The notes beneath the pieces were generated by a model. It was given only the letters and a program-made list of their open reading frames with translations, was not told where the DNA came from and made no database searches. This document shows positions 53,796-55,722 of a stretch of 64,000 nt of DNA, in pieces. The position numbers and the translations under genes are program-made. Position 1 is the stretch's first letter, and each line of letters begins with the position of its first letter. Source of the stretch: Nitrospirota bacterium (lineage in GTDB: Bacteria; Nitrospirota; Thermodesulfovibrionia; Thermodesulfovibrionales; JdFR-88); contig JAJYIR010000013.1 in assembly GCA_021789935.1 (NCBI GenBank), positions 1,651 through 65,650 on the forward strand, given 5' to 3'.

Positions 53796-55103
53796 ATGAC
53801 CAAGATCGCCGTTTTCATACTGACAGTCTTTTTTGCCGCCGTGGCCCTTTTCTCGATCTACAACTACGATACGACCATGATCCATGTGCCGTTTTCCGGC
53901 ATATATTCGGTGCCCAAGATCGGGCTGATCCTTTTCTCCGTTATTTCCGGGGTGTTCCTGATGCTCACCCTGGTGGCCTTGAGGGACACCAAGCGGTTCA
54001 TGGACAACTACAGGCACGTAAAAAGGCAGAAAAAAGAGGAATGGATCGAAGGGCTTTATTCGAAGGCCATAAACCAGATACTTGCGAATAACAGGGAAGA
54101 GGCAAAAGAAATACTCGAAACCATACTGGGGGAGGCCCCGGAGCATCTGGATGCCCTTTTGAGGATGGGGGACACATACTCTTTTTCAGGGCAGCATGCA
54201 AAGGCGGCGGAATACTACAAGCGGGCACTTGGCGCGTCAGGAGGCAAGAACATGGAGGCGCTCCTCCTTCTCGAGCAGGAGATGGAGGCCCAGTCCATGT
54301 GGGACAGTGCCCTGAATTACGCCGAGGACATATTGGAGCAGGACCCGGACAACCTGTCCGCATTGGAGAGCAAACGTTCCATACTTGAGAAGATCGAGCG
54401 CTGGCCGGACCTGGTGGAGGTTCAGAAATCGATATTGAAGCTTGAGCACCTGCCGGACCGCCGGGCGGAGGAGGCCAGGCTTAGCGGTTACAGGTATGAG
54501 TACGCAAGACAGATGCTTGAGGCAAACGACCTGGAACGGTCGGGGAAGGTATTCCGGCAGGTCCTCAGGTACGAAAAGGACTTTATCCCTTCCTATCTGG
54601 GGGCGGCCGAGGTGCTGCTGGGCCAGGGGGAAGATGAGCAGGCTGTGGAATTCCTGGAGCGGGGCTATGCCCATACGGGCTCTGTCATCCTGCTGGCCAG
54701 GCTTGAGGACCTGCTCATAAACAAAGGTGAACCGGAACGGATAATCAAGCTGTATCAAAACGCGCTGAACGGCAACCCGAGCGACCCCGTGCTCAAGTTC
54801 CTCATGGGCAAGCTCTATTACCGGCTGGAGATGATAGATGACGCCCTCGACAGCCTTAAAGGATTTGAGTCCGCGGAGAACTTCCCTTCCGTCTGCAGCC
54901 TCCTGGGGGAGCTCTACATGAGACGGGAACGGTACGAAAAGGCCGCACGCGCCTTCAAGAAGGCCGTAGACATGCAGCCAAGCAAGCTCTTTTACTGCTG
55001 CAGTTCCTGCGGGCATCTGGCCGCCGAATGGGGCGGCAGGTGCTCAGGATGCGGCAAATGGAACTCCTACAGGTTTGATATCTATGGAAGAAGCAAGCTT
55101 TAA
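53796..55103 (+). CDS. lapB: LapA-LapB-like fusion: N-terminal two-TM LapA-like segment, a TPR array and a C-terminal rubredoxin-type Zn ribbon
   Basis: Two TM helices, about 8 TPRs, and a terminal CCSSCGH...RCSGCGKWNSY as in LapB/YciM. Confidence 0.75.
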   Translation: MTKIAVFILTVFFAAVALFSIYNYDTTMIHVPFSGIYSVPKIGLILFSVISGVFLMLTLVALRDTKRFMDNYRHVKRQKKEEWIEGLYSKAINQILANNREEAKEILETILGEAPEHLDALLRMGDTYSFSGQHAKAAEYYKRALGASGGKNMEALLLLEQEMEAQSMWDSALNYAEDILEQDPDNLSALESKRSILEKIERWPDLVEVQKSILKLEHLPDRRAEEARLSGYRYEYARQMLEANDLERSGKVFRQVLRYEKDFIPSYLGAAEVLLGQGEDEQAVEFLERGYAHTGSVILLARLEDLLINKGEPERIIKLYQNALNGNPSDPVLKFLMGKLYYRLEMIDDALDSLKGFESAENFPSVCSLLGELYMRRERYEKAARAFKKAVDMQPSKLFYCCSSCGHLAAEWGGRCSGCGKWNSYRFDIYGRSKL

Positions 55104-55722
55104 AAAGGGCGCCGTCGTCCTGGACACAAGCCTCTTTGTGAACCCGGACGTAAGGCGCAGCTTCGGCCCAAATCCCACGGCGGCCCTTGAGAACTTCCTT
55201 CGGCTTGCCGCCCAGGCGACGGAATTTGAATTTTATATGCCGCCGTCCATCTTCAATGAGCTTAAGAATTTCATCGAGCCGGAGAATATCCCGGGGGAAC
55301 TGTTCGTGTACCTGCACCAGAAATCTCCGAAAAAACTGGAGCTCACCACCCCTGCCTATCTCCTTTATGAGCTGGTGGAGGACATCAGGGAGCGTGTGAA
55401 CCGGGGGCTAAGGCTGGCGGAGCGCGCGGCCAGGAACCCCGAGGGCAGGGAGGTAGATGAAATAGTGCAGGACTTGAGGCGCAAATACCGCGAGGCCCTG
55501 AGGGAAGGCATCATAGACAGCAAGGAGGACGTGGACCTGGTCCTTCTGGCCATGGAGCTTAACGGGCTGCTGGTGTCAGCAGACCAGGGCATAATCAAAT
55601 GGGCTGACAAGCTGGGAATAAAATGGCTGGTACCAGAGAAATTCAAGCAGTACATGGAGGCCCTCATAAAGAAAACAAAACACCTCTCTTCCGTGGAAGA
55701 GGAGGGGGAAAAAGGCGGTTAA
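55084..55722 (+). CDS. PIN_5-family protein: HARP (homolog of Aquifex RNA-free RNase P), formerly annotated 'RNA ligase partner, MJ_0950 family'
   Basis: [51 protein letters not shown] and [18 protein letters not shown] match Aq_880-type proteins as I recall them. The ATG at 55084 is preferred over the TTG at 55075. It overlaps the lapB end by 20 nt. Confidence 0.75.
   Translation: [212 protein letters not shown]

Follow-up and report, generated by a model that had tools for sequence, protein, structure and literature searches.

The open reading frame (ORF) at positions 55084–55722 (+ strand) of contig stretch JAJYIR010000013.1 from an uncultured Nitrospirota bacterium (64,000 nucleotides, hereafter the window) is, as judged from its sequence, an intact member of the HARP family of protein-only ribonucleases P (RNase P), and its family membership is secure. 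Most probably, with a probability that we put at about 0.7, HARP is the sole RNase P of the organism, as it is in Aquificaceae. This reading rests on the state of the rnpA gene in the relatives of the organism. RNase P is the textbook example of an essential ribozyme, and bacteria in which a protein was swapped for it are, to our knowledge, barely documented outside Aquificaceae. With the gene of the window, an uncultured Nitrospirota lineage gains a clear HARP that is probably essential.

Identity of the HARP gene

The gene starts with ATG (an in-frame TTG at 55075 could also serve as the start) and encodes 212 amino acids, i.e. a single-domain protein of roughly 24 kDa which according to Pfam has no extra RNA-binding domain. 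The only Pfam family matched is PIN_5 (PF08745; E = 1.6e-59). The score is 201.2 bits against a cut-off of 27, and residues 11–195 of the protein cover profile positions 2–204 of 205. NCBIfam model TIGR03875, which carries the former name of this family, ‘RNA ligase partner’, is matched with E = 1.6e-59, and the score with model NF003344 (241.9) is just above the equivalog cut-off of 241. The matches in PDB comprise seven distinct sequences, all of them named ‘RNA-free ribonuclease P’, with E-values from 6e-62 to 7e-44. The best match is 7E8K, the apo form of PbHARP (52% identity over 191 ungapped residues, E = 6e-62), while Aq_880 of Aquifex aeolicus (7F3E) is aligned over 185 residues almost without gaps (47% identity, E = 5e-53). 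The family is small: 208 matches at E ≤ 0.001 were found among 1.84 billion cluster representatives (50% identity).

A previous sequence-only reading of this DNA had proposed a HARP-type PIN_5 gene sharing the conserved blocks of Aq_880. The full-length profile match and the RNA-free RNase P chains of PDB bear out the assignment, and all blocks quoted in that reading are found in the translation of 55084–55722. From the 47–52% identity to the solved HARPs we infer a PIN-like fold with a two-helix spike. An AlphaFold2 model calculated from a shallow alignment of 21 sequences had a mean pLDDT of 45; it was set aside and no evidence on the fold was drawn from it. The C-terminus carries a 14-residue acidic tail past the core aligned with PbHARP.

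Catalytic and tRNA-binding residues

The roles of individual residues were taken from the cryo-electron microscopy and mutagenesis of Aq_880 (AaHARP; PMC12217051) and mapped onto the HARP of the window by alignment. Among the 18 AaHARP residues compared, for each of which experiments had shown a role, 17 are kept. The catalytic D14, D145, S146, E148, D149 and D167 correspond to AaHARP D7, D138, S139, E141, D142 and D160 and are invariant across 21 Nitrospirota HARPs; all six were found when the catalytic residues were checked against Aq_880, as the sequence-only reading had suggested. The core of the active site, predicted by homology to bind metal (D145-S146-K147-E148-D149-V150-D151), is encoded at 55516–55536 (+), whereas the codons of D14 and D167, aligned with AaHARP D7 and D160, are located at 55123–55125 (+) and 55582–55584 (+), respectively. 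The arginines R102, R110, R117, R132, R136 and R140, which correspond to AaHARP R94, R102, R109, R125, R129 and R133 and are engaged there in elbow binding or located at the cleavage site, are likewise invariant across the 21 Nitrospirota homologues. The sole mismatch is AaHARP R123, replaced by Asp in the window; this arginine was described as poorly conserved (PMC12217051).

From its homology to AaHARP, HtHARP and PbHARP one would expect the protein to form homo-oligomers built from dimers, in the range from tetramer to dodecamer given for the family. One dimer would grip the tRNA elbow via the spike-helix arginines R110, R117, R132 and R136, and the neighbouring dimer would put the phosphodiester between positions −1 and +1 into the two-Mg2+ site formed by D14, D145, S146, E148, D149 and D167, with the 5' leader being removed as a result. 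R102 and R140 would be positioned near the scissile site.

Distribution, synteny and selection of HARP in relatives

A first scan gave 22 HARP loci, all of them in metagenome-assembled genomes (MAGs) of Nitrospirota/Thermodesulfovibrionales, with 66–94% identity to the HARP of the window; the string nadD-rsfS-(rlmH)-lapB-like-HARP is found in 20 of them. A second scan, made with an alignment, gave 374 HARP-encoding stretches, and the analysis was carried out on the best 80 of these. All 80 belong to Thermodesulfovibrionia (Nitrospirota) species and show 64–94% identity. In 62 of the 80 species the lapB-like gene stands directly 5' of HARP, forming the string rsfS-(rlmH)-lapB-like-HARP. On the 3' side there is a convergent Pab1020-type Rnl3 ligase gene (Pfam RNA_ligase and Lig_C) in 24 of the 80 relatives and a convergent mnmE-yidC-yidD-rpmH operon in 8 of them.

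In the FastTree phylogeny all 81 HARPs of Nitrospirota group in a single supported clade, apart from Aq_880, PbHARP and TcHARP, and the HARP of the window belongs to a clade of 12 members. The HARPs without an upstream lapB are nested inside the lapB-linked ones, so the linkage to lapB looks ancestral for the Nitrospirota clade. Comparison with the three closest relatives gave dN/dS of 0.05–0.08 for HARP (0.04–0.05 for its core), 0.05–0.11 for hemA, hemC and the lapB-like gene, and 0.12–0.23 for nadD, rsfS and rlmH. Purifying selection on HARP is as strong as in the most constrained of the neighbouring genes.

These data bear on whether the gene might instead code for a PIN toxin of the VapC-like type, paired with an antitoxin, or for a recently acquired mobile PIN nuclease. 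HARP does belong to the PIN superfamily and a toxin-antitoxin origin of the family was hypothesised (PMC6380272), but no small antitoxin gene accompanies it, the flanking genes being that of a 435-aa membrane protein with tetratricopeptide (TPR) repeats on the 5' side and a convergent gene on the 3' side. The synteny in 62 of the 80 species, the single clade of 81 Nitrospirota HARPs and the dN/dS of about 0.05 also make this explanation highly improbable, and it was rejected on account of the housekeeping context and the purifying selection.

State of rnpA at the rpmH-yidD site

The rpmH-rnpA-yidD-yidC locus is near-universal. A scan with the L34 protein of Thermodesulfovibrionia, encoded by rpmH, retrieved 80 rpmH loci, 78 of which were informative. 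The search for rnpA was done by tblastn with the RnpA proteins of Escherichia coli, Bacillus subtilis and Thermotoga maritima as queries. An rnpA ORF is located between rpmH and yidD in 33 of the 78 loci (E about 1e-15, RNR motif present in these ORFs), and there is none at this site in the other 45. In L008, L015 and L022, three HARP loci adjoined by the rpmH operon, rpmH is followed by yidD after 3–67 nt, with no rnpA.

The rpmH loci were paired with HARP by assembly accession prefix, with the list of HARPs consisting of the best 80 matches and those of the first scan. With this list, 28 of the 45 assemblies that lack rnpA proved to have HARP, versus 2 of the 33 that have rnpA. Seen from the side of HARP, 28 of the 30 HARP-bearing assemblies with a retrieved rpmH locus lack rnpA at the rpmH-yidD site. 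The raw Fisher p-value of this association is 2.7e-7, which overstates the independence of the assemblies. According to the YidC tree, the state of rnpA must have changed at least 6 times.

In place of an intact rnpA, five HARP-bearing assemblies have short fragments resembling it between rpmH and yidD: JASEEX (L157:2662-2778, E = 9e-13), CAZLFE (L177:2663-2767, E = 3e-7), CAWGWX (L167:2656-2769, E = 3.5e-5), DASPRG (L170:2704-2778, E = 5.6e-4) and CAWCKM (L175:2698-2781, E = 1e-3). Their appearance suggests pseudogenes left over from a recent loss of the gene. Four of the five assemblies are present in the YidC tree, where they form a group nested among rnpA-bearing lineages, which speaks for a loss at this site and against relocation. 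The scan with L34 took in no member of the 12-member HARP clade to which the window belongs. One member of this clade, JACWAF (B_NIT_04), was found by exact-protein look-up; its locus reads rpmH-yidD-yidC, with no rnpA between rpmH and yidD.

In the aggregate, the evidence from the relatives points to loss of the classical RNase P rather than to its co-existence with HARP. The classical ribonucleoprotein enzyme was probably lost in this Thermodesulfovibrionia lineage, and HARP would be the sole, essential enzyme of tRNA 5' maturation.

There are several points that weigh against this interpretation. The joint occurrence of HARP and rnpA loss is clustered in the phylogeny, and a phylogenetically independent-pairs test had only 3–6 contrasts and no power. 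The rnpA gene could have moved elsewhere instead of being lost. In two assemblies, JBFLXE (L160, L254) and DYHX (L180, L209), HARP is accompanied by an rnpA that follows rpmH and looks intact; unless these are chimeric bins rather than true organisms with a dual RNase P, co-existence does occur in the class. Four bacterial HARPs from dual-enzyme organisms showed no pre-tRNA cleavage in vitro (PMC9945441; PMC12153264), so membership in the family is no guarantee of activity. As to expression, three small metatranscriptomes of the mine-drainage study contained no contig on the HARP locus; the sequence is present in the mine-drainage metagenome runs at 17.5x word depth.

The second and third of these points bear on the alternative in which rnpB is present, rnpA is relocated, and HARP co-exists with the classical RNase P as a back-up or condition-specific enzyme. 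Most HARP-bearing bacteria and all HARP-bearing archaea indeed keep the ribonucleoprotein enzyme (PMC10941002, PMC6380272), and such a role was proposed for Thermodesulfatator indicus and the HARP-bearing archaea. We nevertheless regard this alternative as unlikely, given the 28 of 30 HARP-bearing relatives without rnpA at its usual site, the decaying remnants in five of them, the structure of the rpmH locus in JACWAF and the strong purifying selection on a HARP gene fixed in a housekeeping operon.

Still less probable is that HARP mainly makes another RNA cut (at the 3' trailer, between cistrons, or in conjunction with the Rnl3 ligase), with tRNA 5' maturation left to a different enzyme. It would agree with the in vitro processing of 3' trailers by AaHARP, which cleaves these too (PMC12217051), with the wide co-occurrence of HARP and Rnl3 (PMC12153264), exemplified here by the 24 relatives with a convergent ligase gene, and with the above-mentioned HARPs inactive on pre-tRNA. 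However, all the catalytic, elbow-binding and cleavage-site residues for removal of the 5' leader are kept, no Rnl3 homologue is found in the 64-kb window, and, if rnpA was lost, there is no other known enzyme for the essential RNase P activity. HARP as the only RNase P of the organism is the reading that we prefer.

Several further observations concern the rpmH locus. One sub-clade has the rnpA-less rpmH-yidD-yidC...mnmE operon running directly towards HARP (L208:5823-10581, L229:5636-10537), and the old rnpA site and HARP are within about 5 kb of each other. The N-terminus of L34 is nearly universally MKRTYQPS; in Thermodesulfovibrionia it begins with MGTYTTYHPHK (or MGGTYTTYHPH), in rnpA-bearing and rnpA-less loci alike (L008:11441-11581 (−), L117-L196). 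A scan with a degenerate DNA pattern (the L34 N-terminus, a spacer of about 200–260 nt and the YidD motif CRFxPTCS) gave 94 loci, none of them from Nitrospirota; it missed Thermodesulfovibrionia because of this unusual N-terminus and says nothing on that lineage. The loci found by the pattern (e.g. L023-L102) come almost entirely from MAGs of Marinimicrobia/Neomarinimicrobiota/Fidelibacterota, where rnpA seems to be missing from the usual site as well. The source-metagenome reads on L123 gave short, ambiguous pieces from other populations only.

Organization of the probable HARP operon

The genes hemA, hemC, nadD, rsfS, rlmH, lapB-like and HARP are all encoded on one strand, and HARP is the last of them. 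A promoter-like site, TTGCCA-17-TATAAT, with 11 of 12 consensus matches, is located at 52798–52826 (+) and is a candidate promoter of the operon according to a consensus scan only. It is followed by rsfS (ribosomal silencing factor, 52918–53328, +; Pfam RsfS, E = 6e-33), which overlaps by 4 nt with rlmH (SPOUT rRNA methyltransferase, 53325–53792, +; Pfam SPOUT_MTase, E = 4.6e-45). A gap of 3 nt separates rlmH from the lapB-like gene (53796–55103, +).

The product of the latter is a LapB-like membrane protein of 435 aa which matches TPR families; its N-terminus contains hydrophobic helices, followed by the TPR array and by a C-terminal zinc ribbon. The match with Zn_ribbon_LapB (E = 3.5e-4) is under the curated cut-off, and the matches with the NCBIfam LapB models are weak and all far under their curated cut-offs.

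The 3' end of the lapB-like gene overlaps the 5' end of HARP by 20 nt (55084–55103, +, from the ORF coordinates). The stop codon of lapB is situated 13 nt before the VLDTS codon, and the same spacing is observed in 29 of the 62 lapB-linked relatives, 28 of which have an ATG giving the same overlap; an in-frame ATG with a 20-nt lapB overlap is present in most of the lapB-linked relatives. The kept overlap fits a conserved translational coupling between lapB and HARP, and HARP is probably coupled in this way to the lapB-like gene of the window.

Downstream of HARP, in the 74-nt gap before the convergent gene of a 145-aa protein, there is a hairpin with the features of a bidirectional intrinsic terminator (55744–55776, both strands). 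The stem, of 14 bp and with the core GAGGGCG/CGCCCUC, stands between a run of A and a run of U. The folding energy is −29 kcal/mol (z = −5.2) for the + strand and −30.5 kcal/mol (z = −4.6) for the − strand, and no shuffled sequence folded as well on either strand. A simple terminator scan did not list this hairpin, apparently because base pairing between the A and U runs lengthens the stem.

HARP would accordingly be the last cistron of an rsfS-rlmH-lapB-like-HARP operon, with transcription probably stopping at the terminator 3' of it. The sequence-only reading had claimed the 20-nt overlap and a strong bidirectional terminator, and had supposed from them co-expression with housekeeping genes. 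The overlap is confirmed by the end of the lapB-like ORF at 55103 and the terminator by the folding of both strands, while the supposed co-expression is supported by the tight gene string, which is conserved in dozens of relatives.

Other features of the window

The convergent gene (55797–56234, −) bounds the locus and lies outside the HARP unit. It encodes a Cys-rich protein of 145 aa (MCLDHKIACCCGK...CPECS...) with no match in Pfam or NCBIfam. Among the loci of the relatives this gene is kept only in the three closest, and it sits where the Rnl3 ligase or mnmE stands in other relatives; together with fur it takes the place of the ligase both in the window and in these three. In the 64-kb window no Rfam family, RNase P RNA included, reaches its gathering score, and neither an RnpA-like sequence nor a tRNA gene was found.

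Relation to previous work

HARPs of Nitrospirae have been in the literature since 2017, and a few genera of Aquificae and Nitrospirae were reported to encode HARP alone (Daniels et al. 2019, PMC6380272). Seshadri and Gopalan (2025, PMC12153264), who counted 178 bacterial instances, name Thermodesulfovibrionales as one of the orders with HARP, describe the pairing of HARP with Rnl3 and tie HARP to harsh habitats. Since HARP-only Nitrospirae were already known, the gene of the window adds a further member together with its evolutionary context. The overlap of the lapB-like gene with HARP, the number of Thermodesulfovibrionia species concerned, many of which have habitats that seem non-extreme by MAG name alone, the rnpA remnants and the repeated loss of rnpA were not found in the literature compared.

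We are inclined, with moderate confidence, to regard Thermodesulfovibrionia as a natural series of replacement of the ribozyme by HARP, the stages of which would be rnpA without detected HARP, both together, HARP with rnpA remnants, and complete replacement. The lineage of the window would be at the complete stage, with HARP fixed in the LapB-like operon and translationally coupled to it. The survey suggests that the swap is widespread in the class, as seen from the best 80 HARP matches, the at least 6 changes of the rnpA state and the five assemblies with remnants. If rnpB was indeed lost as well, the class would show the replacement of a ribozyme by a protein both in progress and completed, for direct comparison, and would also yield HARPs from non-thermophiles for biochemistry. 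Many of these lineages come, judging by MAG names only, from groundwater, peat, lake sediment and mine drainage; such non-extreme habitats, if true, would weaken the proposed link between HARP and harsh environments.

Comparison with known systems

A probable functional parallel is AaHARP (Aq_880; 7F3E, 8KD9/8KDA), the founding HARP and the sole RNase P of Aquificaceae. The HARP of the window probably plays the same part, as the single RNase P left once rnpA and, putatively, rnpB had gone. The hosts differ: AaHARP comes from hyperthermophilic Aquificaceae and the HARP of the window from an uncultured Thermodesulfovibrionia bacterium of mine-drainage metagenomes. PbHARP of Planctomycetes bacterium GWF2_40_8 (7E8K, apo; 7E8O, with pre-tRNA-His; Li et al. 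2022, PMC9051087) has the PIN core and the helical spike that are predicted for the HARP of the window and cleaves the 5' leaders of pre-tRNA in vitro (PMC9051087). Its gene context differs from the rsfS-rlmH-lapB-like-HARP string of the window, and the dimeric state in vitro is a feature of PbHARP itself.

The likeness to eukaryotic PRORP is more distant. PRORP is also a protein-only RNase P, and its PIN-like metallonuclease site superposes on that of HARP (PMC8266387), but it belongs to another PIN subgroup, contains a PPR RNA-binding domain and is a monomer; in terms of family membership the two are not homologous. The HARP-Rnl3 pair (Seshadri and Gopalan 2025, PMC12153264) is seen in 24 of the 80 relatives, whereas the window has no adjacent ligase.

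A further comparison is with Thermodesulfatator indicus (Goessringer et al. 2023, PMC9945441), the HARP of which has real RNase P activity. This organism keeps functional rnpA and rnpB, and its dual RNase P was proposed to be a transition state preceding the loss of both genes. In contrast, most relatives in the lineage of the window have no rnpA at all at the rpmH site or retain only its remnants.

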